A stretch of 64,000 nucleotides of DNA from Bacilli bacterium (GCA_045628045.1 JAZQOV010000002.1:96001-160000), one strand, 5' to 3'; shown: positions 27,691-46,026, numbered from the stretch's first letter. Numbers and translations are program-made. Notes: generated by a model not told the origin, from the letters alone.

Positions 27691-27749
27691 CTCTTTTGCA
27701 TATTCTATATGCGAGCGTACTTAAGTAGTGAACTTCATTTGCAAAAGAG
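27691..27749 (+). repeat. Hairpin module C
   Basis: CTCTTTTGCA...GCGAGCGTACTTAAGTAGTGAAC...TGCAAAAGAG; recurs at 39424, 42425, 45970. Confidence 0.85.
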
Positions 27750-27884
27750 CTGCTAGAGGATGATAACACAGTAAAATTGAATTGCATAATAAGTATGATG
27801 TGTTAAAATAGCACTAGAAAATTTGAATAACTAAGTTAAATAAATTTGCAAAATTAAAATGATATATTATTGCAATTAGAGAAA

Positions 27885-28664
27885 ATGAATAGAAAAACAT
27901 TCGAAGGATCAATTACTATTGAACATGAAGGCATAACTTATTATGTTTCAGATCTTTCCTATACAATTTGGGAAGATGATTCTTTTGAATTCGTGTTTAC
28001 TCCTAATTATTTTGTTATTGATTTACTTCCAACAAGCGTTTTTCAAGGAATTCCTGGATTAAATCTTGATGAAAGAAAAGAAAAGTATGTTCGCAAAAAC
28101 ATAATGCCGACATTTATTTCTGAAAGAGTTCCTCAAAAAAATAGGGAAGATTTCTTTGAACTTCTAGAAGAAGCTGGTATGGACTATTTAAATCCAATTG
28201 AATATTTGCTAAAAACAAAAAAACAATATAGCGGTGATCCTCTCAAACTTAAAGAAAAGAACGTTAAAACATTAGTGAACATAAACGAATTAGCAGTTAA
28301 AAACAACACATTTGGATTAACAAAAATAATTTTGGATAATCTCGCTAAAGGAAATGATGTTTTCTATGAGGGATCAATTATTGATAACACTAATAGAAAA
28401 GCATTCTTTAATGTTCTTCATGCTTTATATGTAAAAACTTTAAAGGGAAGAGAAGCTACTAGAAATGCAGGAATAGAAAAAGCAAGACAATCTGGTAAAT
28501 ATAAAGGAAGAAAACCAGTTCAAGTTGATATGGTTTTATTTAATGAATCACTCAAAGATATTTCTAATGGAGTAATTAGTGTTTCAGAAGCATGTAAAAG
28601 ACTTAATATCTCCGTGGATAAATTCTATCGTGTTAGAAAAATAGTTAATAAAGAATCTAAGTAA
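27885..28664 (+). CDS. Hypothetical: HipA-N-like domain plus resolvase-type C-terminal arm/HTH
   Basis: FISERVP..NRE...LL...G; C-terminal AGIEKAR..GKYKGRKP..ACKRLNIS..FYR; no YxRxS catalytic domain. Confidence 0.55.
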   Translation: MNRKTFEGSITIEHEGITYYVSDLSYTIWEDDSFEFVFTPNYFVIDLLPTSVFQGIPGLNLDERKEKYVRKNIMPTFISERVPQKNREDFFELLEEAGMDYLNPIEYLLKTKKQYSGDPLKLKEKNVKTLVNINELAVKNNTFGLTKIILDNLAKGNDVFYEGSIIDNTNRKAFFNVLHALYVKTLKGREATRNAGIEKARQSGKYKGRKPVQVDMVLFNESLKDISNGVISVSEACKRLNISVDKFYRVRKIVNKESK

Positions 28665-28773
28665 AGATAACACCTCTTAAGCATTGAACGTAATTTATAA
28701 GTGAAATGCTAGGTGTTTTCTTTTATTCTTTTCTCATTAGAGAAGCGTATCAAGTTCTTGCAGGTCAAGAAAA
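28663..28773 (+). repeat. Repeat A copy 2 plus module B
   Basis: Starts inside the upstream stop codon; followed by TTTTCT..TAGAGAAGCGTATCAAGTTCTTG..CAAGAAAA. Confidence 0.92.
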
Positions 28774-28826
28774 ACGCAAAATAATAACCATTTGCTAATC
28801 AAAGCAAAGCAAAATGTTAGTTTAAG

Positions 28827-28865
28827 AAGGTAGATGTTGACAATGTACCTTCCGAAACTTACAAT
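28827..28865 (+). promoter_or_regulatory. Sigma-A promoter with overlapping inverted repeat (candidate AbiEi operator)
   Basis: TTGACA-17-TACAAT-6-ATG; AAGGTA.AT...AT.TACCTT spans the -35. Confidence 0.7.
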
Positions 28866-28871
28866 ATAGTC

Positions 28872-29423
28872 ATGATTTACACAACGAAACAACTTCTTAA
28901 AAAACACAAAAACAACACAAGTATTAACAGAATGGAGAAATCCGGAAAACTTTTTAGGGTTGCTCAGGGTGTTTATTCTGACGAACAAACTAATGTTGCG
29001 GATTTAGAAAGCATATTTCTTGTGTATAAAAATGCTATTTTAACTAACGAAAGTGCATTTGCCTTTTATGAATTAACCGACAACATTCCTGAAAAGTACT
29101 CAATAGTAACTCCACTTAAGTCACATAGAATTAGCTTTAAAGGTGTTGAGCAAAGCTATATGCAAGATTCAATTTTAAAAATTGGATTAACTAAAGCAAA
29201 AACAGAGTATGGATATATTAATATATATGACAAAGAAAGATTACTTGTTGAATTGTTTAGACTCCGCAACAAGTTTTCTTATGAGCTTTACAAAGAAGTA
29301 GTGGCAAATTATAGAAAACTTGCTATAGAAAATAAAATAGATTTTCTTAAGGTTTTTAAATATTGCGATAAGTTCGCATATGGCAAGACGATAAGAAAGA
29401 TTATTGAGGAGGTAATCATATGA
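28872..29423 (+). CDS. abiEi: Type IV TA antitoxin AbiEi
   Basis: G.L.RV..GVY, SAF.FYELTD.IP, IYDKERLLVE. Confidence 0.85.
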   Translation: MIYTTKQLLKKHKNNTSINRMEKSGKLFRVAQGVYSDEQTNVADLESIFLVYKNAILTNESAFAFYELTDNIPEKYSIVTPLKSHRISFKGVEQSYMQDSILKIGLTKAKTEYGYINIYDKERLLVELFRLRNKFSYELYKEVVANYRKLAIENKIDFLKVFKYCDKFAYGKTIRKIIEEVII

Positions 29424-30226
29424 AAACAATCAGTGAACTTGTAAAAGATAAAATAAATCTTTTTAATATGAATAGAGTTGAGGCAGAGAGCTATGTTTGC
29501 CAAGAAATTATAATCAATAAAATTGCCAAATCTGAGCTTGTTGATAGAACATTCCTAAAGGGTGGTGTTGTGTTGTTTAACATGTCAAAGAATGAACGCC
29601 GCACAACAAGAGATATTGATTTTGATTTAGCACACTACGATATATCCACAGAAGAATCTATGAAAAACTTGGTTTACATGTTAAATAAAAGAGACTCTGA
29701 ATACGTTGTTACCTACATTAAAAGTGATCAGCTACATCAAGACGATTATAAAGGCAGAAGACTTTATCTCAAAGTGTCTGATAAAAGTGCTACATTAAAA
29801 ATTACGATTGATGTGGGTGTTCACACTTTATTTGCAATTAATCAACTTGATTCAATTTTTACATTTAATAATGACAATAACAAAGTAGTGGTTAAAGTGA
29901 ACCCACCTGAGCAAATGATAGCAGAGAAACTTTATTCTTTAGCAAAACACACTATAGTGTCACAAAGATATCGTGATCTTTATGATGTATATTACCTTCT
30001 AAAGAACACTAAAGTTGAAAAGAAGGTAGTTCGTCAATGTTTTGAATTGCTTTTAATTAATAATATGCATGGTTTTAATGATTTGAGTGATGTTATCTCT
30101 AGAATTGATGAAACCCTCTCAAATGAAGTGTTTAAAGAAAGAACTGAAAATGCTTCTAAGAAATGGATTGATATTGACTATCTTACTTTAAAAGAAACAA
30201 TTCTCAATTTGTTATATAACATCTAA
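29420..30226 (+). CDS. abiEii: Type IV TA toxin AbiEii nucleotidyltransferase
   Basis: LKGG, RRTTRDIDF, IAEKL, RYRDLYD. Confidence 0.9.
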   Translation: MKTISELVKDKINLFNMNRVEAESYVCQEIIINKIAKSELVDRTFLKGGVVLFNMSKNERRTTRDIDFDLAHYDISTEESMKNLVYMLNKRDSEYVVTYIKSDQLHQDDYKGRRLYLKVSDKSATLKITIDVGVHTLFAINQLDSIFTFNNDNNKVVVKVNPPEQMIAEKLYSLAKHTIVSQRYRDLYDVYYLLKNTKVEKKVVRQCFELLLINNMHGFNDLSDVISRIDETLSNEVFKERTENASKKWIDIDYLTLKETILNLLYNI

Positions 30227-30233
30227 TAACTTT

Positions 30234-30347
30234 AAAGATAACACCTCTTAAGCATTGAACGTAAGTTATAAGTGAAATGCTAAGGTGTTTTCTTTTATCT
30301 CTTTTCTTGATAGAGAAGCGTAGCAATTTCTCGTATGACAAGAAAAG
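30234..30347 (+). repeat. Repeat A copy 3 plus module B
   Basis: Near-identical to copy 2, a few nt after the abiEii stop. Confidence 0.92.
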
Positions 30348-30615
30348 CCTCAATTTAATATATAGAAATTTATTTACTTAATGAAGACGTTTGTTAATGT
30401 AAGTATAGAGTTCACCCATGATAGTTAATGACTTCGCCTAGTGGGAACTTTTTTATTTACTATTTAGTTTTTTCAAATATAATGTAAATAGCAGGACATG
30501 AGCGAATTAAGTTTCGAGGGGCCTGCTTTTAATTTACTTTATTTCCGATATTTTCCGTTTTTTGTCTGTTTTTGAAAGAGAAACATTAGCAAATTCTCGT
30601 ATAACAAAAAAGATG

Positions 30616-31425
30616 TTAAATTTTGATTCCTGAAATGTCTAAGAAATTATCGATTGAGAATCCTGGCATGTAATTACATGTGGATATGTCCGTTCCAAGT
30701 TTGTTAAACGACTCCCCAAAATGATATGCCTTATCATCAACAAACAAATATCTATCGTGAAACTTATCAACCTTTATTACCTTATATTTGTCTGATTCAA
30801 ATGATTCGTTCTTTGGATGAGTAATTACCACAACCTTTGCTGGGCTGTGTAATAAAATTTCATCAAATGTGTGATCAAAATAGTTATCAATGATTACTAT
30901 TAATTTTTTAGCACTTTTCAATATTTCTTCTAACATAAACAAGGCATCAATACGATTGGCTTCTTTTAGTGTTAAGGATTTGTTTTGGAAATCTTTAATT
31001 TCGTAAATTTGATTTTGAAGATCAATAATTTTTTCTTTGCATTCTAAGCAAGAAAAGTTGGGTTTTGCAAAAATGTATTGTTTTAAAACATAATTTGCCC
31101 ATTGTCTAAATAACGTTCCTCTCTTTCCGTTCACTCTATAGCCCACAGATAAGATAACATCCAGGTTATAAAGGTCAATTTCTCTAGAGACGTTTCTTTC
31201 ACCTTCTAATTGAACAGTTGCATTTTTTGCAACAGTTGAAATTCTTAATAGTTCGTTGCTGTTATAAATATTATTTATGTGTCTAGAAATTGTTGATTTA
31301 TTCTTTTCGAAAAGAGCAGCAATATCATTCAATGAAAGCCATACAGTATCTTCCGTTGGAGAAACATTAACTGGCAATGAAAAGTCTCCATCTTTGAATG
31401 TTAAGATTTCAAATTTTTTGTCCAT
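30616..31425 (-). CDS. RhuM/virulence-family DNA-binding protein with PLD-like C-terminal domain
   Basis: TVWLS...IA.LF..TISRHI.NI, YNLDVILSVGYRV..RG..FRQWA; IIDNY..FHDRYL..YHFGES. Confidence 0.8.
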   Translation of the reverse strand: MDKKFEILTFKDGDFSLPVNVSPTEDTVWLSLNDIAALFEKNKSTISRHINNIYNSNELLRISTVAKNATVQLEGERNVSREIDLYNLDVILSVGYRVNGKRGTLFRQWANYVLKQYIFAKPNFSCLECKEKIIDLQNQIYEIKDFQNKSLTLKEANRIDALFMLEEILKSAKKLIVIIDNYFDHTFDEILLHSPAKVVVITHPKNESFESDKYKVIKVDKFHDRYLFVDDKAYHFGESFNKLGTDISTCNYMPGFSIDNFLDISGIKI

Positions 31426-31598
31426 TTTAGGTTCCTCCTTATATTAAAAATAACAATCTTTTAATCGAACAAGATTGATGCGGTTTTTGCATCTGTGTAA
31501 ATTATAATATGCACGCATTGAAAAGACAAGCATAAATTGAAAATATTTTATTTATTTTTTGCATAATGTTAAAATGATGCAGTAAGGGGAAAATAGGT

Positions 31599-31931
31599 AT
31601 GGATAAATTAGAGGAAGAAATTTCAGAACGTATTAAAGAAATGATGGAAAAGCGTAAGGTCACTCAAAGTGATCTTGCTAGTGAGCTTGGAGTGCACCAA
31701 TATGACATTTCACGCATGTTAAACGGCAAGCCTTTTCCATCTATTTCTCAATTAAAATTGATAGCGAACTATCTTGATTGTTCTTTGTATTATCTAATTG
31801 GAATACAAGAAGAATCATATCGTGAGCTATCACCTGAAACTAGAAAGATAGCTAATGCATATCAATGCGCTAATGAAACCATTAAAGCAGTAGTAGATCT
31901 GGTACTCACAAATAAAAAGATAAGTAAATAA
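31599..31931 (+). CDS. XRE-family transcriptional regulator
   Basis: TQSDLA..LGV....ISR..NG..PS...L..IA..L. Confidence 0.9.
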   Translation: MDKLEEEISERIKEMMEKRKVTQSDLASELGVHQYDISRMLNGKPFPSISQLKLIANYLDCSLYYLIGIQEESYRELSPETRKIANAYQCANETIKAVVDLVLTNKKISK

Positions 31932-31932
31932 A

Positions 31933-31996
31933 AAAGATAACACCTGATTAAGCATTGAACGTAATTTATAAGTGAAATGCTAAGGTGTTTTCTTTT
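31933..31996 (+). repeat. Repeat A copy 4
   Basis: Immediately after the HTH stop; CACCTGATTAAGCATT variant. Confidence 0.92.
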
Positions 31997-32053: not shown

Positions 32054-33238
32054 ATGGTTAATTTAATTAGAAGAATATTTATTAAGAATTACAAAGACAT
32101 TAATGATCCTATTGTACGTGAGAAGCACGGCACAGTAGCATCAATATTTGGAATGGTAATGAATGTTATCTTATTTGCGATTAAATTTGTTATTGGTTTA
32201 ATTGCTTCATCAATGTCAATTATTTCTGATGCTTTAAATAACTTAACAGACCTTTTTAGCAACATCGCTAGTCTGGTTGGTTTTAAAATTGCAAATAAAC
32301 CTGCAGATAAAAAACATCCTTATGGTCATGAAAGAGTGGAATACATTACTGGAATGATAATTTCATTCATCATCATTGCTGTTGGTATTGTGCTTGGATA
32401 CACTGCAGTGAACAAATTAATCACCAAAGATGTCGTAACTACATTCTCTATTTGGTCATTTGTCATTCTTGGCGTATCAATATTTGGCAAGATCTTGCTT
32501 GGATTATTTAACAAAGGAATGGGAAAAGCAATTAACTCAGTTTCTTTAAAAGCAAGTATGCAAGATTCATTTAATGACGCAATATCGACATCACTTGTTT
32601 TAATTGCCGCTATTATTTCCTACTTTGTAGGTGAATCAGTGTGGTGGCTTGATCCTGTTATATCAATAGCAATTGGTGGTTTTATTGTTTATTCGGGAAT
32701 TAAGCTCGTTTTTGAAACAGCTTCTCCATTAATTGGACTTTCTCCAGACACTGACTTTGTTAAAGCGGTGGTGAATGATGTACTTTCATTTAAAGGAGCA
32801 CTTGGAATTCATGATATCGTGTGTCACTCATATGGCCCTACTAAGAAGTTCATAACACTTCATGTCGAGGTTGATGGATATGAAGATGTTATGAAACTTC
32901 ACGATATGATTGATAACATTGAAGAATGCATCGCTAAAAAATATAACTGTGAAATCACAATTCACATGGATCCAATAGACACTAAAAATAAAGAAATCCC
33001 TGTTTTAAAAGAAAAAATAGAAGATATTCTTAAACATATCTCACAGGAGATAACATTCCATGACTTACGCCTTGTGAATGGCCCAAGTCACACGAATGTG
33101 TTATTTGATATCGTTATACCTCCGGTTAAAGACATTAATAAAGATGAAGTCATTAATGCTTTAATTAAAGGCGTTAAAGAAATAAACCCTAAATATAACT
33201 TAGTGATTAAAGTAGATAACTCATACACCCATGGATAA
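32054..33238 (+). CDS. Cation diffusion facilitator transporter
   Basis: SDALNNLTD, PADKKHPYGHERVEY, HD...YG, HVEV, IHMDP. Confidence 0.93.
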   Translation: MVNLIRRIFIKNYKDINDPIVREKHGTVASIFGMVMNVILFAIKFVIGLIASSMSIISDALNNLTDLFSNIASLVGFKIANKPADKKHPYGHERVEYITGMIISFIIIAVGIVLGYTAVNKLITKDVVTTFSIWSFVILGVSIFGKILLGLFNKGMGKAINSVSLKASMQDSFNDAISTSLVLIAAIISYFVGESVWWLDPVISIAIGGFIVYSGIKLVFETASPLIGLSPDTDFVKAVVNDVLSFKGALGIHDIVCHSYGPTKKFITLHVEVDGYEDVMKLHDMIDNIEECIAKKYNCEITIHMDPIDTKNKEIPVLKEKIEDILKHISQEITFHDLRLVNGPSHTNVLFDIVIPPVKDINKDEVINALIKGVKEINPKYNLVIKVDNSYTHG

Positions 33239-33239
33239 C

Positions 33240-33352
33240 AAGAAAACACCTCTAAAGCATTAAACAAAATTCATAAGTGAAATGCTAGGTGTTTTCTTTT
33301 ATCTTTTTTCTTGATAGAGAAGCGTAGCAAGTTCTCGTAGATCGAGAAAAGC
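33240..33352 (+). repeat. Repeat A copy 5 plus module B
   Basis: AGAAAACACCTCTAAAGCATT...AATGCTAGGTGTTTTCT right after the CDF stop. Confidence 0.9.
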
Positions 33353-33560: not shown

Positions 33561-33977
33561 ATGAAATTCTTAAGATGTAAGAAATGTGGTCAGATCGTCG
33601 GTGTTGTAAAAGACACGGGGGTCCCAGTTATTTGCTGTGGTGAGACAATGGAAGAACTCATCCCTCATGTTGATGAAAAGGGATTAAGTGAGAAACACAT
33701 TCCAGTGTACGCAGTAAAGAAAGGCAAATGCATCGCCAAAATAGGTATGATCCCTCACCCAATGACAGATGATCACTATATTGAATGGGTCGCACTCGTC
33801 ACAAACAAGGGGAACCAAAGAAAAGAACTTGAACCTGGTAAATCCCCTCGCGCAGAATTTTCTCTCGATGAAGACGAGGTTGTAGAGGAAATCTACGCGT
33901 ATTGCAATCTCCATCAGCTTTGGAAACTTGATTTAAAGAAAAACAAAGACTGTGGATGCAATATCAAAACAAAATAG
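33561..33977 (+). CDS. dfx: Desulfoferrodoxin / superoxide reductase
   Basis: CKKCG..CCG, EKH.P, HPM...HYIEW, YCNLH. Confidence 0.93.
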   Translation: MKFLRCKKCGQIVGVVKDTGVPVICCGETMEELIPHVDEKGLSEKHIPVYAVKKGKCIAKIGMIPHPMTDDHYIEWVALVTNKGNQRKELEPGKSPRAEFSLDEDEVVEEIYAYCNLHQLWKLDLKKNKDCGCNIKTK

Positions 33978-34153
33978 TTCAAGTTTTATATACATAGATT
34001 TTCTCTCCTTAAGTGAACCGTTCCTCTTATCTATTACCCTCGTAGGAGGACGGTTCACCTAGGAGATAAGTGGTGAAAACTAACCAGAGTGAACGTACAT
34101 CGTAGTGAACTCACATACTTCACCACCTGACAAAAAGGAAAGGAAGATAACTC

Positions 34154-35188
34154 ATGAAAAGAAACGTAATTAAAGCATTAGTATATGACTCCAAAGGATT
34201 CGTTGAAGAATTTTTCGAGATTGCTAACAAAGGAAGAATTAAGTTTAGTTACACTAGTGATAAGCTCAATGCTAACACTGTTAAAACAGCAGAAAGCTAC
34301 GACACGATTGTGGCATTTGTTAACGACACTATAGACAAAAGCGTAATAGACGCACTAGTAAAACAAGGAAAGAAAGCAATCTTCTTGAGAAGCAGCGGAT
34401 TTAATAATGTTGATCTTAATTACATTGATGGGAAATTTAAAGTATTTAGAGTTCCTGCCTATTCACCAGAAGCAGTAGCGGAACACGCCTTTGCGCTAAT
34501 ACAAACTTCAAATAGAAGGATACATAAAGCTTATATTAGAACTAGAGAGTTCAATTTCTCCTTAGACGGGTTGATAGGGAATAATCTAAATAATAAAACC
34601 ATCGGAATTATTGGAACTGGGAAAATAGGGCGAGTCATGATTGATATCGCTAATGGATATAAAATGAATGTAATTGCCTATGATCCATACCCAGTTCCTG
34701 ATCCAACTAACCTTAGTTACGTTTCTCTTCCTGAGTTACTTTCTAGAAGTGACATTATTTCACTACATTGTCCTTTAATTAGTGACACCAAGTACTTGTT
34801 AAATAAGGAAACCTTAGCGCTCACTAAGAAAGGCGTAATGATTGTGAACACTTCTAGAGGAGGCCTTATTGATTCTAGAGCGCTCCTAGATGCGATCAAA
34901 TCTCGTCATGTTTCGAGTGCATGTTTAGATGTCTACGAAGAAGAAACAAATATCTTTTTTGAAGATAAGTCAAATCACATTCTAGATGATGAAGTACTGA
35001 GAGATTTAATTTCCATGCCAAATGTGATTGTAACTTCTCATCAAGGCTTCCTAACTCATGAAGCTTTAGAAAATATTGCTAACACTGTTATTAGTAACAT
35101 CATCAGTTTCTTTGATGGTACCCCTAGAACTGAAAATGAAGTTATTTTAAGTGGTAGTAGCAAACAAAATGAAAGGAAATCAAAATGA
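34154..35188 (+). CDS. ldhA: D-lactate / D-2-hydroxyacid dehydrogenase
   Basis: RVPAYSP.AVAEH, GTGKIG, SLHCPL, NTSRGGL, LDVYEEE, TSHQ. Confidence 0.9.
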   Translation: MKRNVIKALVYDSKGFVEEFFEIANKGRIKFSYTSDKLNANTVKTAESYDTIVAFVNDTIDKSVIDALVKQGKKAIFLRSSGFNNVDLNYIDGKFKVFRVPAYSPEAVAEHAFALIQTSNRRIHKAYIRTREFNFSLDGLIGNNLNNKTIGIIGTGKIGRVMIDIANGYKMNVIAYDPYPVPDPTNLSYVSLPELLSRSDIISLHCPLISDTKYLLNKETLALTKKGVMIVNTSRGGLIDSRALLDAIKSRHVSSACLDVYEEETNIFFEDKSNHILDDEVLRDLISMPNVIVTSHQGFLTHEALENIANTVISNIISFFDGTPRTENEVILSGSSKQNERKSK

Positions 35189-35427
35189 GTAAAAGACAAA
35201 GAGCAAGGTATTTTAGATTTATGGGGTTTGTAACATGCATTGTATCAATCGCTATGATTGTTGGTCTTGTGATCACCATTGTTGGTCAATTCAAAGATGC
35301 TGTAAAAGCATGGCCAATCATCGCTAACTTCTTAAATATCTTAGCAGTACTTGGAGTAGGCTTAGGACTTACTAACTTATTCTATTCTCATGCTTGTGTA
35401 TTAGATGATGAATACTGTGCTAGATAA
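35185..35427 (+). CDS. Small 2-TM membrane protein
   Basis: 80 aa, RBS GAAAGGAAA; resembles the ORFs at 24707 and 24944. Confidence 0.7.
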   Translation: MSKRQRARYFRFMGFVTCIVSIAMIVGLVITIVGQFKDAVKAWPIIANFLNILAVLGVGLGLTNLFYSHACVLDDEYCAR

Positions 35428-35474: not shown

Positions 35475-35587
35475 AAAGAGAACACCTCTTCAGCATTGAA
35501 CGTAATTTATAAGTGAAATGCTAGGTGTTTTCTTTTATCTCCTTTCTTGATAGAGAAGTGTTGCAAGTTCTCGTATAGCAAGAAAAG
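35475..35587 (+). repeat. Repeat A copy 6 plus module B
   Basis: AAAGAGAACACCTCTTCAGCATTGAACGTAATTTATAAGTGAAATGCTAGGTGTTTTC. Confidence 0.92.
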
Positions 35588-35609: not shown

Positions 35610-35663
35610 TGAGACTATTGATATACGTCTCAATGTGAAGTCTATTTAGTCATACGACTTCAC
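35610..35663. repeat. Hairpin modules D and E
   Basis: GAGAC..GTCTC and GTGAAGTC..GACTTCAC; related copies near 37838, 42520 and 45910. Confidence 0.8.
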
Positions 35664-35723
35664 TTGTATATTGTTGAGAATTATAGAATAAAAGGTAGAA
35701 TATAGGTAGAAAAGAGGCTGCTT

Positions 35724-37673
35724 ATGATAATATCGAATGAACTTATTAAATCTTATATAGAAATTATTAACAATCACAAAAGTAAAGTTGAGAGCATTGC
35801 AAACATGTTTGCTTCAAGTTCGTCTGAATTTAAGACTTTATTGCAAGAATATAACGATATTTGCAAACCCGATCCAAATTTTATTAATTTTAATTTTGAA
35901 AGATATCTTATTTTTTCTGAAAAAGTAAAAGATTTCAGTAAATATGTTTTAAACTTAAGTACATTTAATGAGATTATTGGTAGACTTGCTGAAACTGATC
36001 TTAGTAATGCTTATTACAAATTGATTAAGCATTTCATTGAAACTTTAAAATCTAATGATTTTGATTACTGTTATGAGAATTCACTTAATTATAAAGCAGC
36101 TTCTGACACTGTCACAAAATTAAATTGCATACTTAATTCTTTTAACAATAATATGACCGATTTTATTACCAATAATCAGAAAAATTTAGAACCAATATTT
36201 CTTTTTTACGATTTAAAAGAAATCAAAAACAATATAACTTTAATTGGAACTAATGGTTCTGGAAAAAGTAGGTTTTCTAGACAATTGTTAACGTTTAGTG
36301 ACAATCCAAATTTCGTTGTTATTGCCGCCCAACATTTTTTGGGTTTTGAATTAGATGGAAAAGTAGATTTGAATGCTGGTGGAATTAATTTAGATGGTTA
36401 TCAGAAAAGTGACAAGCTTAGCGTTAGTGCAAGCGATCAATTCTATCAAAAAGAATTTGGCGTTTTAATGAACAAACTGAGAAGCGAACATATTAGAGAA
36501 AGGTATACAAAAGGGGTCGTATCAACAATTTTTAACAAAGTTAAAGAATTGTTTCATGAGTTAATACCAGCAAGAGAAATAGAATATGATTTTGACACTT
36601 CGAAGTTTTATGCTGTCCCACCCAATGGTATTAAATATGATGTTAATAATATGAGTGATGGTGAAAAAAGCATTCTATTTTATATTCTTCATATTATATT
36701 TTCTGATGAGCATTCCTTTATAATTGTTGATGAACCTGAAAATCATCTTCATTCAGATATTTGCACAAGATTGTGGGATAAACTTGAAGAAATCAGACCA
36801 GACTCTATTTTTATTTACCTGTCTCATAATATAGATTTTATTGCATCGCGCAAAAATTCAACGATTATTTGGAACAAAAAGTTCGATTATCCACAAAAAT
36901 GGGATTTCGAATTACTAAAAGACAATGAATTGCCAAAACAACTTTATTTAGAAATACTTGGAACAACGCCGCCTGTTTTGCTTTGCGAAGGCTGCAAGAA
37001 TTCTAAAGACATTAAAGTATATGAGGAGTTATTTAGTGACTATAAAATTAGACCATGTTCAAGTTGCAACGATGTTAAAGAATATGTAAAAACAATAAAA
37101 AGATTAGATGTTTTTAAAAATAAAACAGTGAATGGAATTATTGACTTAGATACACGAAACGAAAAAGAAGTTGAACATTGCGTTAGGGATGGAGTTTTTG
37201 TTTTGAATGTAGTTGAAATTGAAAATCTTCTTTTTGTGCCAGAATTATTAGACAAAATATTTGATAAGTATTCTAGTGATGAACAGAAAAATAATTTTTT
37301 TGATTCCTTTTATAGTAAAGCAAGTGAAGAATTGCCAAGGATGGTAAATAGAACTTTAAAAGATTATTTCGTTAAGGATGTTCAAAGCAATGATAGGGAC
37401 TCTTTTGCTGAACAGGTTAACACCAAATATAAAGCAATAAGTTTTGCTGACCAGGTAAGCGCGAAGAAAACTGAGCTTGAAAACGAATTTAGAGAGATTA
37501 TTGAAACTAGAAATTATGATTGCGCGTTAAAGAAATTCGATTTCAAAAATCAACTCTATTATATAGGCGAATCAATTATAAGAGATTATTTAGAGAAAGC
37601 GGTCGATATTCTTCACTCTGATAAGGCTTTAGCTGATTTAATAAAAGCAAAGTATATCAGAACAAATATTTAA
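35724..37673 (+). CDS. ABC-type ATPase fused to DUF4435/TOPRIM-like domain (fused PARIS/OLD-like defence protein)
   Basis: GTNGSGKS, MSDGEK, IIVDEPENHLH, SH; then LLCEG...D, GIIDLD, EIEN. Confidence 0.75.
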   Translation: MIISNELIKSYIEIINNHKSKVESIANMFASSSSEFKTLLQEYNDICKPDPNFINFNFERYLIFSEKVKDFSKYVLNLSTFNEIIGRLAETDLSNAYYKLIKHFIETLKSNDFDYCYENSLNYKAASDTVTKLNCILNSFNNNMTDFITNNQKNLEPIFLFYDLKEIKNNITLIGTNGSGKSRFSRQLLTFSDNPNFVVIAAQHFLGFELDGKVDLNAGGINLDGYQKSDKLSVSASDQFYQKEFGVLMNKLRSEHIRERYTKGVVSTIFNKVKELFHELIPAREIEYDFDTSKFYAVPPNGIKYDVNNMSDGEKSILFYILHIIFSDEHSFIIVDEPENHLHSDICTRLWDKLEEIRPDSIFIYLSHNIDFIASRKNSTIIWNKKFDYPQKWDFELLKDNELPKQLYLEILGTTPPVLLCEGCKNSKDIKVYEELFSDYKIRPCSSCNDVKEYVKTIKRLDVFKNKTVNGIIDLDTRNEKEVEHCVRDGVFVLNVVEIENLLFVPELLDKIFDKYSSDEQKNNFFDSFYSKASEELPRMVNRTLKDYFVKDVQSNDRDSFAEQVNTKYKAISFADQVSAKKTELENEFREIIETRNYDCALKKFDFKNQLYYIGESIIRDYLEKAVDILHSDKALADLIKAKYIRTNI

Positions 37674-37907
37674 TTATTAGATATTATTTCCTTTAGTGGT
37701 TAATTATATTTGATATAAATATTGGTAGAGCCTGTTATTTAAATACTTAGAGATTAAGCACCATTTACATATGGTGCTTTATTTTCTCTTTTGCAAAAGA
37801 GTCGGTAATTAATGCTATTTCATTACGTATTTATGAAGTGGCTATCTAGGTGAGATACGCCACATTGGTGAAGTCTATTTATTGCTCGTGTATCCACTAG
37901 CGAGCAA
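37669..37907 (+). repeat. Repeat F copy 1 with hairpin modules
   Basis: TAATTATTAGATATTATTTCCTTTAGTGGTTAATTATATTTGATATAAATATTGGTAGAGCCTG overlapping the upstream stop. Confidence 0.9.
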
Positions 37908-37981
37908 CAATACGAATTCACCCCACTGGGTAGGGTAATATATGGTGTTTAATGAAATGAATTATGGTGTATAATAAAGAA

Positions 37982-39136
37982 ATGACTAATTCAATTTTAA
38001 TAATTGGAAACGGCTTCGACCTAGCTTGTAACTTAAAGTCAAAATTTTCAAATTTTTTAACTGATGAAAAACTTGAACAATTACGTGCTAATCCATACTC
38101 TTGTGAAAATTTCTGGTATTTATTATCTGCATTAAAATTCAATAAAAATGCTGACAACGAAGAAAATCATATATTCCCCATTCTTGCAAAAGACGATTAT
38201 CTTTGGATGGATATTGAATCTTTGATTAAAGAAGTTTCAACTTCTAAATTACCAAGGTATTACGCACAATTTTTCAAAGAAAATAATTATTTAGCGCTTT
38301 TCACTTCCGCTTTTGTGAATAGAAATAATAATATGTTTTTGGCTAAAGATAATGAATTTTCTTACTTACGAATGTTTTTTATAAAAAGATTTCCCAATAT
38401 TTTTGAGCAAACAATCAATATAATTGATTTCTTGAAATTAGAATTAGAAAAATTTGAAAGAACATTTGCTGCATATTTAATTGAGTCAATTAGAACAACT
38501 GATAATTATTACGAAAAAGCATATGAACTTTTTGGTTTTTTGGGTTGCACTGGAGTGAATCCTGATTTTTTGATTGATTTTAATTACACACACGATGACG
38601 AAAAATTTAATGAATTATTTGGAAACGATAATAGAATTTTTATTCATGGTTCGGTTAAAAATAAGCCTATTATCGGATTCGATTCTTCTAATATTTCTAG
38701 TGATGCACCCGTGTTATTGAGTAAAGCATGGCAGAAAATGTCATCAAATATTAGTGGTGTAAAGCTGCCACAATTTGACGAAGAATTTGAGATTAAATTT
38801 TTCGGTCATTCACTTGGTGAACAAGATTACTCATATTTTCATGCATTATTTGATCGCTATGATATTTATAATAAAAAGGTTTCTCTCTGTTTTATCTATA
38901 GCCGATATAAGGATGATGAAAAAGAGAATGATGAAATAACAAAAACATATTGTAATGATGTTTATAAATTATTAAATGATTATGCATTGAGAAGTGGAAA
39001 AGAAAGTAATTACAGAACATTAATTAGTAGATTACAAATAGAAAACAGGTTACACATTTATGAATTAAAAGAGTATGTAAAAAGTCATTCTTTTTCCGAA
39101 CAATTCAAAGAAATAAAAGCAAAAGGAAATGAATAA
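37982..39136 (+). CDS. AbiH-family abortive infection protein
   Basis: IIGNGFDL, W.DIE, FNYT, IHG, GHSL..D..YF. Confidence 0.85.
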   Translation: MTNSILIIGNGFDLACNLKSKFSNFLTDEKLEQLRANPYSCENFWYLLSALKFNKNADNEENHIFPILAKDDYLWMDIESLIKEVSTSKLPRYYAQFFKENNYLALFTSAFVNRNNNMFLAKDNEFSYLRMFFIKRFPNIFEQTINIIDFLKLELEKFERTFAAYLIESIRTTDNYYEKAYELFGFLGCTGVNPDFLIDFNYTHDDEKFNELFGNDNRIFIHGSVKNKPIIGFDSSNISSDAPVLLSKAWQKMSSNISGVKLPQFDEEFEIKFFGHSLGEQDYSYFHALFDRYDIYNKKVSLCFIYSRYKDDEKENDEITKTYCNDVYKLLNDYALRSGKESNYRTLISRLQIENRLHIYELKEYVKSHSFSEQFKEIKAKGNE

Positions 39137-39289: not shown

Positions 39290-39481
39290 ATATTAGGAAC
39301 CTTATGGTTCCTTTTATTTTAATTATTAGATATTATTTCCTTTAGTGTTCAATTATATTTAATATAAATATAAGATAAGGTAAATAAGAATTAATAGGTA
39401 GCAATTATTGCTACATTTTTAATCTTTTTTGCAATTAATAAATGTGAGCGTAGTTTACTAGTGAACAGATTTGCAAAAGAG
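39290..39481 (+). repeat. Repeat F copy 2 plus module C
   Basis: AGGAACC-TTAT-GGTTCCT-TTTATTTT then the F body; C at 39424-39481. Confidence 0.88.
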
Positions 39482-39575: not shown

Positions 39576-39765
39576 AGAATATAAGAAGAGTCATATCGTG
39601 AACTAGCACCCGAGACTAGAAAGATAGCTAATACATATCAATCTACTAATGATGCAGTCAAACGAGTTATTAACTTAGTACTATTGAATAAAGACTCAAT
39701 CAATTGATAATGATAACAGCCGATTAAGCACTAATAAAATTTGAAAATGGATGCAAGTGTTGTTT
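39576..39765 (+). pseudogene. Remnant of XRE regulator 3' half plus decayed repeat A
   Basis: Translates I*EESYRELAPETRKIANTYQ...LVLLNK versus IQEESYRELSPETRKIANAYQ...LVLTNK of 31599-31931. Confidence 0.88.
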
Positions 39766-39920
39766 GAACAAACGAAATTTATTAACATAAAGTGATAATT
39801 ACAGGGAATTTCCTTTATAAGGAGGAGTGTTTCAAATTTTAGTCCTTTTTCAATTTTGTGAAAAAAACTTGCACAAAAATGAATAATCGTGTAATCTTTA
39901 GATAATATCGAGGTAAACAC

Positions 39921-41180
39921 ATGATTGGTTCGTTAACATTTAATAACTTTCGTTTCTTTGAACAGTTTCAAACAATGTCGTTTTTTGCTGATTTAAGAAC
40001 TAGAAAGTTGGTCTCCAATTCTCTTAAAATTTCAAATAAGAATGTTTTAAAAACAACAGCAATTTACGGTTCTAATAATTCTGGCAAATCTAATGTTGTT
40101 GATCTTTTTTATAGATTAAAAATGGTGTTAGAAGGAAAAGATGTTGATTTTAACACAAAAGCGTTAGGCGATAGTGAAACCGTTGAATTAAGCATTACTT
40201 TCAATAATAATGACGGGGATGGTTGGTTTTGTTATTCGTTTAGTTTTAATCATGAAAAAAGATCCTTTCTTAAAGAAAAATTCTCATCTATTTCTTATTA
40301 TGATGAAGGCGCCCCCTTTGAAAAAGTAATTTTTGAGAAGGATGTTGAATCTTTAAGATTAATGATTCTTGGTGAGGAAAAATCTGAATTATTAAATGTT
40401 ATTACATCAAATAAACCTTTGCTGTATACTTTAAATTTAGAAAAAGGAAATTTTTCTGAATTATCAATTTTTTTAGAAAAAATTAAAAAATTATCTGACT
40501 CCATCATTGTTTTAAGGATGTTTAATATTCCTATTCAAAATACAATCAATGCTCTAAAAGGTTCTGACAATAACAAAAAGAACTTTATTAAAGAATTCGT
40601 TAAAAATGCTGATTTAACAATCGATGATTTTGATTATACTCAAAAACAACTTGTAAATTTTGAAAAACCAAAAACGGTAAACGAAGACGCTTTAAAAGAA
40701 ATTGCACAACTTGAGGAAGCGTTACATTTAGGAACAAAGTATAAAAATAAATTTGTTCCTTCTATTTTGTTCGATTCTTCGGGAACAAAGAAGATTCAAG
40801 CAATTGCGTCTTTTATCTATGATTCTATTTTTGAAGGAAAAACTCTTATTATTGATGAATTAGATAATGGTCTTCATTATAAACTTAGCAGAGCAGTTGT
40901 AAGTGCATTTAACAATTTAGCAAATAAATCTGGACAATTGATTTTTACAGCACATGATTTACTTTTAATCAGCAATAATAATTTGATGAGAAAAGACCAA
41001 ATTTATTTTGTTTCTAGAGAAAATTTGAATTCTAGATTGGTTTGGCTTAGAGATTTAACCGTGGCATCCGGCGGGCCAAGAGATATGGAAGTATTAGTTA
41101 AACGTTATAACCATGGTGATTTTGTTCGTACTCCTTCCCCGTCTTTTATTGATAATATTTTCGATATTAAAGCTAGGTAA
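39921..41180 (+). CDS. RloA-like AAA_21 ABC ATPase
   Basis: IYGSNNSGKSN, SSGTKK, LIIDELDNGLH, QLIFTAHD, MRKDQIYFV. Confidence 0.85.
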   Translation: MIGSLTFNNFRFFEQFQTMSFFADLRTRKLVSNSLKISNKNVLKTTAIYGSNNSGKSNVVDLFYRLKMVLEGKDVDFNTKALGDSETVELSITFNNNDGDGWFCYSFSFNHEKRSFLKEKFSSISYYDEGAPFEKVIFEKDVESLRLMILGEEKSELLNVITSNKPLLYTLNLEKGNFSELSIFLEKIKKLSDSIIVLRMFNIPIQNTINALKGSDNNKKNFIKEFVKNADLTIDDFDYTQKQLVNFEKPKTVNEDALKEIAQLEEALHLGTKYKNKFVPSILFDSSGTKKIQAIASFIYDSIFEGKTLIIDELDNGLHYKLSRAVVSAFNNLANKSGQLIFTAHDLLLISNNNLMRKDQIYFVSRENLNSRLVWLRDLTVASGGPRDMEVLVKRYNHGDFVRTPSPSFIDNIFDIKAR

Positions 41181-41185
41181 TTAAA

Positions 41186-41884
41186 ATGGAAGAAAAGTAC
41201 TGTGTTCATTTAATAGTTGAAGGATTTGAAGAAGAAAAGTTTTTCGAAGTTGTTCGAGCTTTTGGAGTAAATGAAAATATTAAATTAACAGTACAAAATG
41301 CCGATGGAGCACATAAGATTGGCGGAAAATATCAGGACGCAATTTCTAATGATGAGTATGATATTGTGCTTTGTGTTTATGATGTCGATTATAAATATAG
41401 TATAAAAGATTCAGCATTTAATTACGTAATGAATGAACTTGTTGAGATTACTGGTTGTAGCTTAGATGCTATGAAGATTAGTTATTGTAATAACCCAAAT
41501 ATTTTAATTTGGTTTTTAGTAGGGACTGAAAAGGTTTCCGACATGGAATTTGTATACGCTTCAAAACCAAAAAACACAAAAGCATTGCATAACCATTGGG
41601 AAGAAATTGGAAAAGGCATAGAAAAGGACACAACTTATAAGACCTATGAAGCTCGTGATTATCAATTAAATATTATGAGAGATTCATATTTATATGGTCA
41701 TTATAGTTATGACAAAATTTTAAGTAATGGAGTAGAATTTGATACCGATTTAAAAAGTAGCTCTATGTCTTCAACAATGTATAAATTATTAGAAGCACTA
41801 AAAATTGGTGATAAGAAATATTTTGAAAGTTTAAAGGAGAAAAATAATGACAAACCTAACACTTCAAGAAAAAGAAAAAATTAA
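41186..41884 (+). CDS. RloB-like TOPRIM-fold partner
   Basis: VEG.EE..F, CVYDVD, NNP...WFL; downstream of the RloA-like ATPase. Confidence 0.7.
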   Translation: MEEKYCVHLIVEGFEEEKFFEVVRAFGVNENIKLTVQNADGAHKIGGKYQDAISNDEYDIVLCVYDVDYKYSIKDSAFNYVMNELVEITGCSLDAMKISYCNNPNILIWFLVGTEKVSDMEFVYASKPKNTKALHNHWEEIGKGIEKDTTYKTYEARDYQLNIMRDSYLYGHYSYDKILSNGVEFDTDLKSSSMSSTMYKLLEALKIGDKKYFESLKEKNNDKPNTSRKRKN

Positions 41885-42062: not shown

Positions 42063-42149
42063 TGAATTTATTGTAGAGTGTGTGAACGGGCGGCTAAGCT
42101 CATTGTTTCTTTTTAACCAATTGAAAATAAAGATAGAAATGGTTAGTTT

Positions 42150-42248: not shown

Positions 42249-42282
42249 AATCAAATTTAATTAACACGCAAGTATATCTTTT

Positions 42283-42562
42283 TATTAGGAACCTTAGGTT
42301 CCTTTTATTTTAATTTTTAGATATTATTTCCTTTAATGGTTAATTATATTTGATATAAATATTGGTAGAGCCTGCCACTTAAATACGCAGGACTCAAGCA
42401 CCTTCTTTGTATGTTGCTTTTTTTCTCTTTCGCAATCCATATAAGCGAACGTACTGAAGTAGTGAACTTCATTTGCAAAAGAGTTGGTAATTAATGCTAT
42501 TTCATTACGCATTTATGAAGTGGCTATCTAGGCGAGATACACCATATTGGTGAAGTCTATTT
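42283..42562 (+). repeat. Repeat F copy 3 with modules C, D and partial E
   Basis: Colinear with copy 1 at 37669-37880. Confidence 0.9.
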
Positions 42563-42797
42563 TCTCGCATACATAGTGTGCCAAACAAAGATTCCATTGA
42601 TTTTTGTTGGATTAAAAATTAACTATTAAAAAAGGCGCAATACAATGCGCCATTGATTTCAAAACATAATTAACCTAATAATATAGCTTCGAAACCCTTC
42701 TAATTGTCTATATTATATACAACAATCATAAAAAGAGTCAAATTTTTTATTAAACATTTTTATATTTATTAAATATTTTAGTAGTAAAAGGGGTGGG

Positions 42798-44819
42798 TTA
42801 TTCATTTTCGTTTGAATTTGAAAAGTAGTGTTTTTTATCTTTTTTTACAAAAACCGATTTGATTCCAAGTAATTTTACTAAATTAGCATTTTTAAATCTT
42901 GTTGAAGGCGTTCTTAACCAATAATATAGCATTACTAATAATACATTTATTAAAACAATCGAACCAACAAACCAGAATTTTGGAGTAGTAATTGCATCGA
43001 ACATTAAGCCGCCAATAGACATAGGCGGTTTATTAAAGTAAGTGATATCGTTAACTTTATAGCCATCAATAAATATTTTAGATATCATTCCAAACCCAAA
43101 CATTGTTACTGCTAAACTAGCAACTGTGAAAGATATGTTTACCCAATGGTAAAATCTATCGTTTGATATGTTTGTTTCACGCCACGAAAATTTGTTTTGA
43201 TTTTCTAAATCTTCAACAATAGTATCAATGTTTAATTTTTTGAAGACGGTTTTAGAGAGATCAAAATTATTTTTGAAACCATAATAGATTATAGAATACT
43301 TTCTTTCAATTTCGGAAAATAAATACGAAATTATTTTATTCTTTTTTCTAATGCCGCCATATTTTCTATTATATTCAGAAGACAATATTTTAATGTAGGC
43401 TAGTAAAGAAGCATAACTACAGCATTGACAAATGTATTCATAATCCCACAAAACATAGTAGCGAAATTTGTGTGATGCCGGTTCAATAAGCTTCATTCGC
43501 GTGTTAACATCAGTTTGAATATTAAGAGCCTGTTCAGCTAGATTGATTACAGTGTATGTGAATTGACCATCTTCATAAAATAGATGTTGTGTGTTTTGGT
43601 TAATCAAATCAAAATTTTTGATATTAGCCTTTCTTCCTTTAAATAAAGTATATGGGTCATAGTTATGATGATTACCTACGAGTAAACTTAAATAGTTAAA
43701 GAAAGTAGTTCCTAATTTTTTCTTTTTGTGAGCTTCTAAAATATAGAAATTTAAATATAAACATTTCCATACTTTAATTTGTTTATTATAATTTTCAATT
43801 AAGTTTAGAATTTGAGTGTCTTTTGCATCAAGCTTTGGGCATAATTCAAATGAATTAAAAGGCTCATGATTGTTTTTGTTGTCAGATTTTTTATCAAAAA
43901 TATTTTTATAAATGATTACCTTTCCATTAAAATTTAAGAATGAATTTAAATCAATAACAGAGAATATTTTTGGCAATTTGTTCATATAAGAATTAATGTT
44001 ATCGGCAGTTTTAACCGCTAAAGGAACATAGTTTAAAATGTTCTTTTTTATATCCAACTTAAATAAGCATGAATCATTTTGTTGGTTATTATTTTGTTTC
44101 CCAGATTGGATTTTTTTGCTCGACACAACAGAAAAATTTAAAAGACCATCGCAAGAAACAAGAATTAATGCTTTTGCATCATTCGCCAAACAATCGCTCA
44201 AATCGCAAACCGAATCCATACTCTTTGCTTCTTTTATAATTTTTTCCAATTGCAACGCTAGTTTATTGTTTGTTTTTTCATTATTATCATTTCTGATTCT
44301 TTGCCAATACTTAATCCTATTTCTAATGTTCTTATTAAACTTTTTTATTTTATTAACATTAGAACAATTTGCATTATAAATCTTTTTTAGCTTATCAATA
44401 CCATCAACAACCCTTAAATACTTCTTATTACATTCAGAATATGTAAAATCTGATTTAAAATAGTCGAAATATTCGAAAATCAATTTATATTTTTCTTTTA
44501 AGAAATCGTCCCTTTTCTTTTTGTCAGATTCCTTTTTGCACATATTATCAATACTGTATTCAAACAATACAAAATCATTTTTAGCCAATTCTTTAATGCT
44601 ATAGTTATCGCCTTTACTATATCTGAGAACTTGTTTTCCGGAAGCTATTTCGTCATCAAAATATTTGGTAATAAACTCATTAATAAGCAAGTTATTTTTA
44701 GACCCTAATGGACCAGCATTTTCCATACACTTAGCTAAAATTTCCTCATACTTACAAGTATAAATAAATGTTTTAGTGCAAAAATATATTGGTTCTATTT
44801 TTAATTTTACATACGCCAT
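42798..44819 (-). CDS. Large hypothetical protein with CorA-like C-terminal 2-TM segment
   Basis: Helical stalk, then TM1 ending TMFGFGMI (GMN-like) and TM2; very AT-rich. Confidence 0.5.
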   Translation of the reverse strand: MAYVKLKIEPIYFCTKTFIYTCKYEEILAKCMENAGPLGSKNNLLINEFITKYFDDEIASGKQVLRYSKGDNYSIKELAKNDFVLFEYSIDNMCKKESDKKKRDDFLKEKYKLIFEYFDYFKSDFTYSECNKKYLRVVDGIDKLKKIYNANCSNVNKIKKFNKNIRNRIKYWQRIRNDNNEKTNNKLALQLEKIIKEAKSMDSVCDLSDCLANDAKALILVSCDGLLNFSVVSSKKIQSGKQNNNQQNDSCLFKLDIKKNILNYVPLAVKTADNINSYMNKLPKIFSVIDLNSFLNFNGKVIIYKNIFDKKSDNKNNHEPFNSFELCPKLDAKDTQILNLIENYNKQIKVWKCLYLNFYILEAHKKKKLGTTFFNYLSLLVGNHHNYDPYTLFKGRKANIKNFDLINQNTQHLFYEDGQFTYTVINLAEQALNIQTDVNTRMKLIEPASHKFRYYVLWDYEYICQCCSYASLLAYIKILSSEYNRKYGGIRKKNKIISYLFSEIERKYSIIYYGFKNNFDLSKTVFKKLNIDTIVEDLENQNKFSWRETNISNDRFYHWVNISFTVASLAVTMFGFGMISKIFIDGYKVNDITYFNKPPMSIGGLMFDAITTPKFWFVGSIVLINVLLVMLYYWLRTPSTRFKNANLVKLLGIKSVFVKKDKKHYFSNSNENE

Positions 44820-44832
44820 AAATATAACACCC

Positions 44833-45453
44833 TTATAAAATTTCTATTTTAATATTATCATTACCAATTTCACTAGTAAGATCGTAATGGTTAATAGTGT
44901 CATAAAATAAACCAAATTTCAAACTTTTACTATTAGATAACAATGTGTAATCATCTTTATTTATTTTTACTTTGCGATTTACATTATTTTCATCGTCCAA
45001 AAAATTGAAATAGTAATCAGTCCCATCTGTTGAAAAATAATTTAAATTTTTTAAATTATTACATTCGAACTCAATATAATGCGTCTTTCTAAAAGGATTA
45101 ATGAATTTAATTGAATCAAATATACATAAAATGGAACTCTTTAGTTTTTCTTCAATAACATGATAGTCAGTAATTTCCATTGTTACATTGAATTGCATAT
45201 CATGAATCATGCTTTCTGTGTAAAAAGATAACTTATCTGAATCCTTTTCTCCGCAGGAATCTGGAATATTAATTTTAAGATTTTTTGAATTCTTTTCATT
45301 TGGGTTTGGAGCATAAAAATAATTATCACCGTATTTAAAAAGTATATCTGAATAACTAAAATTAAAATGTTCTTTAATGTGTGTTTTTGTGTTATCGTGA
45401 CAGTTGTTAACTAAAGTAGATGTAAAGATTATGAACCAAGTTTTAAATTTCAT
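44833..45453 (-). CDS. Hypothetical protein
   Basis: AT-rich ORF just upstream of the CorA-like gene; start uncertain. Confidence 0.5.
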   Translation of the reverse strand: MKFKTWFIIFTSTLVNNCHDNTKTHIKEHFNFSYSDILFKYGDNYFYAPNPNEKNSKNLKINIPDSCGEKDSDKLSFYTESMIHDMQFNVTMEITDYHVIEEKLKSSILCIFDSIKFINPFRKTHYIEFECNNLKNLNYFSTDGTDYYFNFLDDENNVNRKVKINKDDYTLLSNSKSLKFGLFYDTINHYDLTSEIGNDNIKIEIL

Positions 45454-45792
45454 ACATTCTAATATACTTATTAACAATTACTTTGTAAACAATATTTCTT
45501 TTATTAATTAAAAAAATTCTAATTTCCAAGAATCTTTCCGTTGATCCTATTTATGCGTGTTAATTTTTGTGAATGAAGTACACTTACGTTTGTTAAGTTG
45601 CTTATGACGGGCAAATCTAAACCTACATTCGAGATATCGCACAAGAATTCAAACATCGCTTTTGCAATAGACACTACATATTATTAAACCGTTATTAATA
45701 AATAATATTACTTATAATAATATTTATGTATAGAATAGAGACACTATAAAGAAATATAAGATTAGTTACACAACTGGAGTATATGACTTATT

Positions 45793-46026
45793 ATATTAGG
45801 AACCTTAAGGTTCCTTTTATTTTAATTATTGGATATTATTTCCTTTAGTGGTTAATTATATTTGATATAAATATTGGTTGAGCCTGCTATTAAAATACAC
45901 AGAACTCAAGTGGCTAATTGATACGCCACTATGTGAAGTCGATTAGTTTATACGACTTCACTTTTTATTCTCTTTTGCATGTTTATAAGTGAACGTACTT
46001 AGTAGTGAACTTCATTTGCAGAAGAG
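45793..46026 (+). repeat. Repeat F copy 4 with modules D, E, C
   Basis: AGGAACCTTAAGGTTCCT, F body, GTGGC/GCCAC, GTGAAGTC/GACTTCAC, C hairpin. Confidence 0.9.

Follow-up and report, generated by a model that had tools for sequence, protein, structure and literature searches.

How do blocks of defence genes come to lie side by side in combinations that differ from strain to strain, and what marks the joints between them? Both questions are raised by a 64,000-nucleotide stretch of DNA from an uncultured gut Bacilli bacterium (GCA_045628045.1, JAZQOV010000002.1:96001-160000; G000:C2:96001-160000 in our numbering, from a 1.07 Mb assembly that is 96% complete), here called the window. Between a wecB-like gene fused to a helix-turn-helix (HTH) segment (25366-26688) and a set of capsule genes, the window carries a 19-kb row of short gene blocks, and every gap between blocks contains at least one repeated hairpin of 50-70 nt. 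These bulged hairpins separate the blocks of an array of defence and toxin-antitoxin genes that varies from strain to strain. They are likely docking sites for a predicted gene-shuffling enzyme, in an arrangement that is integron-like and has no integron integrase. Hairpin-bounded cassette arrays have so far been known mainly from integrons. If the prediction is true, the array would be an independent route by which anti-phage genes are stockpiled and reshuffled beside a capsule locus, and its enzyme would recognise DNA by shape, not sequence. The defined motif, its tolerated variants and the breakpoints make such an enzyme findable and the mechanism testable.

A shared bulge in dissimilar hairpins

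The hairpin modules are designated by letters. The original prediction, made from the DNA of the window alone, held that different modules converge on one extrahelical G within a C[G]TA/TAG duplex. For module C this is borne out: the core reads AAGT-GA-AC[G]TAC...GTA-GT-GA-ACTT at 45987, and the variants GAGT/ACTC at 34087 (in a different outer stem) and TGT/ACA with TAG/CTA at 39443 are both present. Three minus-strand D hairpins and module E at 37882-37907 (closing pair T.G) likewise have the proposed form, and the motif was also found in J (26724-26751) and in D0 (37811 and 42493). The pairing of ATAGAGAA with TTCTC[G]TAT put forward for module B exists in B2 and B4, B1, B3 and B5 being degenerate, and the GCGNAGC loops ascribed to B are confined to B2 and B3; in relatives and population contigs the majority of copies read GCGTAAGC. 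Repeat A, which had been counted among the bearers, does not have the motif, as its G mostly faces A (3′ arm TAAG, not TAG) in a G.A mismatch. The bulged base itself is usually G, as claimed, and A in some D and N copies; the D hairpins of the relatives G017 and G033, and population contigs at 35626, change C to T on the plus strand, that is, G to A on the minus. The motif is better described as a bulged purine, mostly G.

The motif lies above background. C[G]TA occurs in 8 of 54 single-bulge hairpins of the array spacers versus 5 of 769 outside (Fisher p 2e-7, which overstates the case, as module copies are related and not independent). Among 36 X[G]YZ bulge contexts, C[G]TA/TAG ranks first, with 9 in 6,288 nt of array spacers against 3 in 124,349 nt elsewhere. 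A structural scan that covered 4,588 nt of array spacers returned 12 motif hairpins (mean of 0.77 and maximum of 5 in 500 shuffles), three of them AT-rich T[G]TA matches regarded as chance. The core that joins GA/GA to the bulge has seven copies in the 1.07-Mb genome, all within the array. The stems around the motif differ among at least the C, B/K/M/N, D and E/J groups.

Covariation, also claimed for these folds, is found in C and D and not in A or B. Ten copies of C from three genomes gave no significant signal (87 of 500 shuffles scored as high). When copies from G016, G028, G422 and G489 were added, the resulting 14 copies from seven genomes had 98.6% of 210 cells paired and seven two-sided changes in two pairs, which none of 500 shuffles matched, in a control that ignores the relatedness of copies. 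Beside the GA loop AC/GT becomes GC/GC, and the third pair past the bulge is C-G, G-C or T-A; the compensatory changes flank an unchanged bulge on both sides. Three of the four added copies were retrieved with a pattern demanding CGTA, which partly builds in the invariance of the G and leaves the pairing partners free, and a model search of 37 congeneric genomes yielded no further C copy without the CGTA G. D-I has two covarying pairs (2 of 500 shuffles), B remains below significance (50 of 500) and A has zero compensatory changes in 11 copies. The C core as drawn is not the minimum-energy DNA fold under standard energy models (z about -1.4), and therefore rests on the covariation.

It might be argued that the modules are ordinary terminators and duplicated spacers, with a bulge shared through common ancestry and chance. 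A, F and G do have the anatomy of terminators, and M, B and N look related, perhaps D0, D-I and D-II as well, which would leave fewer independent origins. This explanation is opposed by the strong enrichment of the bulge context, by the compensatory changes on either side of the bulge in C and by the lack of a U-run behind B, C and K; it is highly improbable, the C covariation and the context ranking having already largely ruled it out.

Placement and orientation of the modules

Modules B, C, K and N come directly after the U-run of a terminator and before the next promoter region. In 19 of the 21 B or C copies captured (24 are known) a T-run, mostly that of a terminator, lies just upstream (within 16 nt), and despite this T-run no single fixed word precedes the stems. 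The base after the B or C stem is a pyrimidine in all 21 captured copies and the third base is G in 14. Of the 14 copies of M, which lies on the opposite strand, 11 end in AAAA-CC, with a variable flank beyond. Directly beyond the A-run and the YSG tail, the sequence becomes variable. Solitary copies of C also stand behind terminators, twice ahead of a related metallophosphoesterase gene; the genes before them are, by our own reading, adhE-like, desulfoferrodoxin and tRNA-Met.

Module orientation follows the array and not the neighbouring gene, B5 and C retaining plus orientation next to minus-strand genes. The strand with the G bulge is plus for A, B and C and minus for D and M. At the seven loci measured, A, B and C are on the weakly G-rich strand, which is the strand expected to serve as lagging-strand template.

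Whether the folded strand is DNA or RNA had been left undecided. DNA is favoured because B, C, K and N lie past terminator U-runs in an orientation independent of the neighbouring gene. As RNA, the modules would be protein-binding elements in read-through or antisense transcripts, acting for example in antitermination over the capsule and defence locus, in RNase processing or as a protein sponge, and the tandem triplets D0/D-I/D-II and N/N′/N2 would be multivalent sites. An internal bulge read in either arm order is typical of RNA-binding proteins; the common B loop GCGTAAGC includes a GNRA-type tetraloop, one-sided changes in C yield G.U-type pairs in six cells versus three unpaired, C2 lies within a gene leader, and A overlaps terminators. 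The asymmetry between G.T and A.C gives no clear choice of strand outside module C. Two RNA runs contain no contig across 35466-35740, which does not count as evidence, their contigs being derived from relatives. An RNA role is quite unlikely, given the placement before the next promoter region and the orientation set by the array; it would also leave the breakpoints at the tails unexplained, and no Rfam family matches the modules at the gathering score, just three chance snoRNA matches appearing at E up to 5.

A fluid array

Gene content and order between the hairpins differ among strains and species, and G017 and G033 have the window's modules at the same locus with different genes around them. 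In run X1, a 10.8-kb contig reads from wecB through module J and 508 other bases to A-B and the RhuM gene, strain X1 departing from the window at 26750, within J, and a 32-kb contig has 42283-45746 in other surroundings. Ten of the 15 X1 joints viewed touch a module (41 further joints lie outside that view). At loose contig ends A is followed by H, by a G033-type spacer or by other sequence. A full C is present in other strains at the site of the collapsed C0. The C core of C2 (window 34070-34126, compared with L019:3191-3280) seems to have been inserted into a hairpin loop in the leader of the dehydrogenase gene; G033 has this leader hairpin before the same gene, without the core.

Downstream of A, G017 and G033 have about 200 nt from the 3′ end of wecB, with C next. 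These duplicates join at an AAAGA microhomology that mimics the C foot, and they differ from the resident gene by 23 synonymous and 4 non-synonymous codon differences; therefore each piece likely stems from a working allele. The pieces probably came from the working alleles of other strains, as expected for tandem integration of circles that carry wecB ends. Integrative elements such as e14 at icd restore the 3′ end of their target gene and can pile up in tandem, and the anchor-gene 3′ ends duplicated between inserts in G017 and G033 are alike in this respect. In contrast to such elements, the inserts are without integrase, the window's strain is without wecB 3′ duplicates, and the boundaries are hairpins and not core or arm sites. 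A three-gene islet at another locus (L199, G489:C46) is flanked by tRNA-Met and by a second copy of the tRNA 3′ end, beyond which come the original terminator and a C-type module.

The same fluidity could arise if the modules were tiny selfish palindromic elements (REP- or MITE-like) that once inserted behind terminators, the array varying through RecA or phage annealing proteins. Such elements would account for the lone copies of C past terminators, for which no partner end was seen close by, for several modules stacked with no gene between, and for the collapsed C0 and other decayed copies; a candidate gene on contig C5 that we read as RecT-like would fit as well. This account is unlikely, since there is no genome-wide spread (all seven GA/GA cores are in the array, and G028 has no second motif hairpin like C in 83 kb of spacers), the modules move together with neighbouring genes, and no TnpA family member is present in G000, G017 or G033.

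Proposed mechanism

The fluidity of the array, the sharp breakpoints at module ends, the placement past terminators, the orientation and the covariation favour a reading of the hairpins as end sites, namely folded single-stranded DNA that an enzyme supplied in trans would cut 3′ of the hairpin, cassettes accreting in tandem past terminators. We judge this reading about evenly balanced between right and wrong. The predicted enzyme would bind the C[G]TA/TAG duplex with its bulge and make its cut close to the A-run/YSG tail, at the foot of the hairpin. Cassettes would be released in circular form, probably while the DNA is single-stranded at the replication fork or in the course of uptake, and would enter at another hairpin foot, those with a wecB piece entering by homologous recombination. 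The expected outcome would be tandem arrays and adjacent end-to-end sites such as A-B, A-C, D-C and M-terminator-N. Both an HUH-type enzyme (relaxase or TnpA-like) and a tyrosine recombinase are candidates, the former suiting a strand-specific cut 3′ of the hairpin somewhat better.

The original prediction had one protein recognising these folded strands. The motif shared by differing stems, the covariation in C and D and the occurrence on both strands and in both arm orders support a common factor that would recognise a folded single strand; that it is one protein we infer, no protein having been found. That the duplex persists whichever its arm order and strand would point to recognition of a fold and not of a spaced double-stranded site. 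In its boldest form, which is possible yet doubtful, one enzyme would recognise a minimal duplex with a bulged purine in many unrelated single-stranded DNA hairpins, whatever their strand or arm order, docking cassettes behind terminators and recruiting host genes and gene ends, and the array would represent a new class of cassette platform in low-GC Bacilli, a functional counterpart of integrons on a different recombinase.

Several observations weigh against the end-site reading. Its main weaknesses are that no enzyme was found in the families searched and that the distance from bulge to tail is variable, at about 6 nt in K, 12-14 in B and M and about 35 in C; this spacing, together with both arm orders, is awkward for one recombinase geometry. 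C2, in the dehydrogenase leader and likely transcribed, is an exception to the placement past terminators, and most genes have the G-rich strand as their sense strand too. Of 12 N copies, 8 have G at the bulge and 4 have A, as do some D copies of G017, G033 and population variants. Where contigs join at repeats, mapping artefacts can arise, and part of the shuffling could be due to RecA working on the 60-110-nt repeats.

The enzyme searches also count against it, as G000 was without PF01797 (Y1 transposase), PF00239 (resolvase), PF01548 (IS110), PF00078 (reverse transcriptase), PF07508 (large serine recombinase), PF03432 (MOBP relaxase) and PF02486 (Rep_trans) in searches that went family by family and did not scan its roughly 900 proteins whole, in an assembly of a type from which plasmids and prophages are often missing. 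No close orthologue of the third of its tyrosine recombinases, considered as a candidate, turned up among the recombinase loci fetched from G033, and G003, in which searches for A, B and C modules found none, has this recombinase.

Further searches for an enzyme

No recombinase gene lies in the window. The three tyrosine recombinases of G000 are on other contigs, and two of them we take to resemble XerC and XerD. A search of G000 for PF04986 (Y2) was uninformative, as no control genome gave a match either. PF03432 and PF02486 were absent from all five genomes searched (MOBQ, MOBV, MOBF and Rep_1 were not searched), and an IntI-type integrase (TIGR02249) stayed below cut-off in the same number. 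PF01797 was absent from G000, G017 and G033, whose assemblies are 93-96% complete, and present in three other congeneric genomes; TnpA loci fetched from three congeneric genomes had no such motif. The module-bearing loci of relatives examined had no intact recombinase gene alongside, by our own reading of open reading frames, and in G017 a broken IS110 lies behind a B copy.

Two enzyme genes were seen elsewhere. One, for a Xer-like tyrosine recombinase, is oriented divergently to another gene at the edge of a separate defence-like island (G000:C6:196000-207600; G017:C34:808-1257) and is 94% identical in G017 and 71% in G003. A reverse transcriptase gene lies among defence-like genes further along the capsule locus of G017 (G017:C34:31340-31951), without a link to the modules.

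Comparison with known systems

The analogies first drawn, with attC sites and with REP/IS200 hairpins, fail as assignments to those classes. Sites of the attC type are imperfect hairpins with an extrahelical base and an unpaired spacer (PMC8946536), and mobile integrons are reported to carry defence cargo (10.1101/2024.07.02.601719). The array is like integrons and integrase-less integrons (CALIN) in that variable, defence-rich genes are split by imperfect hairpins more alike in structure than in sequence, with an extrahelical base and an unpaired spacer. It differs in having no IntI (not required for CALIN), several unrelated site families on both strands and in both arm orders, an AAC...GTT R box only in A, cassettes with their own promoters and either gene orientation, and recruited 3′ ends of host genes.

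The rAID arrays of Bacteroidales (10.1101/2025.05.03.651265) combine defence-type genes with conserved intergenic motifs and no integron integrase, as here; the present array has no tyrosine recombinase at its head, mixed gene orientation, and another host class and cargo. That it is an integrase-less integron or a rAID-like array, whose A, B and C would be attC sites of an uncommon type for a Xer-like enzyme (XerC/XerD or the third tyrosine recombinase), is very unlikely. The layout of module A, with TAAC beside stop codons at its start, an outer stem, an unpaired spacer, an inner stem, a variable tip and GTT at its end, is that of attC (PMC8946536), the cargo is rich in defence genes, and G000 does have three tyrosine recombinases. 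However, no match exceeded the IntI cut-off in the five genomes, B, C, D, K, M and N are without the AAC/GTT box, sites lie on both strands with genes in both orientations, and the third recombinase does not track the array.

Elements of the IS200/IS605 family (Y1 TnpA, peel and paste) have strand-specific hairpin ends, T-rich sequence 5′ of the left hairpin, end-to-end junctions and a lagging-strand-template bias (PMC5027513). The modules share the strand-specific hairpins, upstream T-run, end-to-end sites and strand bias, but there is no TnpA in G000, G017 and G033 and no single fixed tetranucleotide, and both ends lie on one strand for C or B with A and not for D and M. REP/BIME sequences with TnpA-REP are short palindromes, some with bulged stems, stacked into composites (PMC6006769). 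The likeness extends to palindromes with bulges and to stacking; by contrast, the feet of B and C are CTCTTTT and not GTAG/GTGG, there is no Y1 enzyme, and the AT-rich stems cluster at gene-cassette joints and are not spread genome-wide.

The short conserved tail after the hairpin could mimic an origin of transfer (oriT); PF03432 and PF02486 are, as stated, absent. Among other sites considered, dif, the pC194 and pT181 nick sites, MOBQ nic, the ssoA CS-6 box, the sarcin-ricin loop and K-turns do not fit in spacing or context. No description of these modules was found in the literature searched, which took in few subscription journals.

Distribution in relatives

In relatives the motif recurs in families K, M and N, on both strands and in both arm orders. 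N corresponds to B with the arms exchanged; in M the minus strand bears the motif, and the end of the module looks like B in reverse. Module M is present in 5 of 311 family genomes (one in-gene match, in G257, was left out, and an N-like match in G412 was also dropped), C in 7 of 401, behind different terminators, and A with B only in G000, G017 and G033 among the genomes searched. M-terminator-N precedes one 191-aa gene in four different upstream contexts. Within G000, contig C11 has B, E-like and J-like hairpins in a second small cluster (G000:C11:22790-25520), followed by what we read as a likely Fic gene and a toxin-antitoxin pair.

Searches further afield gave little. Model R3, run on 149 genomes of the class, produced four weak matches in three other genomes, all without the core, and the wecB loci of 19 other congeneric genomes had no modules. 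The HTH gene has resident relatives in nine other family genomes, with no module in the flanks viewed. The RhuM-like gene was tried as a tracker of the array and rejected, being present in 21 of 37 congeneric genomes. A narrow A pattern had no match in GTDB, its gap being too short for the relatives. A metagenome scan gave one match, by chance, in a GC-rich gene. In viral contigs three specific patterns had no match, another scan four chance matches and a loose pattern 54 single matches; pattern scans of plasmids and phages returned nothing meaningful.

Genes and modules along the array

Gene identities in the array are Pfam and PADLOC matches, and features are on the plus strand unless stated. 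The anchor gene (25366-26688) is the HTH-fused UDP-GlcNAc 2-epimerase (PF02350), whose 3′ end is the part copied between cassettes in G017 and G033. Module J, with a T[G]TA/TAG bulge on its 3′ arm, opens the array at 26724-26751, before an MNT-HepT toxin-antitoxin cassette (26778-27613; PF18765, PF01934). Then come A1 (27622-27688), with a terminator-like outer stem and a GA/GA core plus G.A mismatch, and C1 (27691-27749). A 264-aa gene with a C-terminal HTH (27870-28664; weak PADLOC PDC-M03B match) follows, its product ending in what we take to be a resolvase-type HTH tail, without a serine recombinase catalytic domain.

Beyond A2 and B1 (28663-28774) lies an AbiEi-AbiEii cassette (28872-30226; Pfam, PADLOC), and beyond A3 and B2 (30234-30347) comes B5 (30565-30611), in plus orientation and adjoining the minus-strand gene of a pair formed by a RhuM-like gene (minus) and an XRE HTH gene (plus; 30616-31931), a pair found again in the G017 and G033 arrays. 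A4 (31932-31996) precedes a cation-efflux transporter cassette (32054-33238), and A5 with B3 (33240-33351) precedes desulfoferrodoxin, 2-hydroxyacid dehydrogenase and an 80-aa gene (33561-35427), the first two of which lie outside the array in G033; C2 (34070-34126) has the C core within the leader hairpin of the dehydrogenase gene.

After A6 and B4 (35475-35587), module D forms the tandem hairpins D-I and D-II with the motif on the minus strand (35611-35664), ahead of an AAA ATPase fusion (35724-37673; best PADLOC match AriAB). The next gap holds the promoter-like repeat H, hairpin F with a terminator and the collapsed C0, of which only the outer stem is left (37669-37801), then D0, D-I and a truncated D-II on the minus strand (37811-37878) and module E, with T[G]TA/TAG (37882-37907). 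An AbiH cassette (37964-39136; Pfam, PADLOC) is followed by terminator G, repeat H, a terminator-like hairpin and C3 (39295-39481), and by a 3′-end remnant of the HTH gene with a decayed A (39577-39770). Past the AbiLi/AbiLii (RloA/RloB-like) cassette (39921-41884; Pfam, PADLOC) stand G, H, F and C4 (42287-42483), then minus-strand D0, D-I and truncated D-II (42493-42560).

Two minus-strand genes of 673 and 214 aa (42798-45477) have no Pfam or PADLOC match; they were found in another context in run X1 and are a candidate defence system. G, H and a shortened F (45798-45907), D-I and D-II on the minus strand (45910-45961) and C5 (45970-46026), the last module before the capsule genes, complete the row. 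In repeat H (37669-37779, 39318-39371, 42309-42420 and 45821-45907) an extended -10-like TGATATAAAT stands directly before hairpin F and a terminator, and H and F together may form a small RNA gene that travels as a cassette.

Upstream of the array, three nucleotide-sugar enzymes (20769-23361 and 25366-26688) have apparent N-terminal XRE-type HTH segments, with a Pfam HTH_3 match in two. A long imperfect hairpin without the bulge motif lies at 24526-24593, 3′ of a 366-aa epimerase gene, and hairpins centred on GGGAATTCC in G028 are similar to it.

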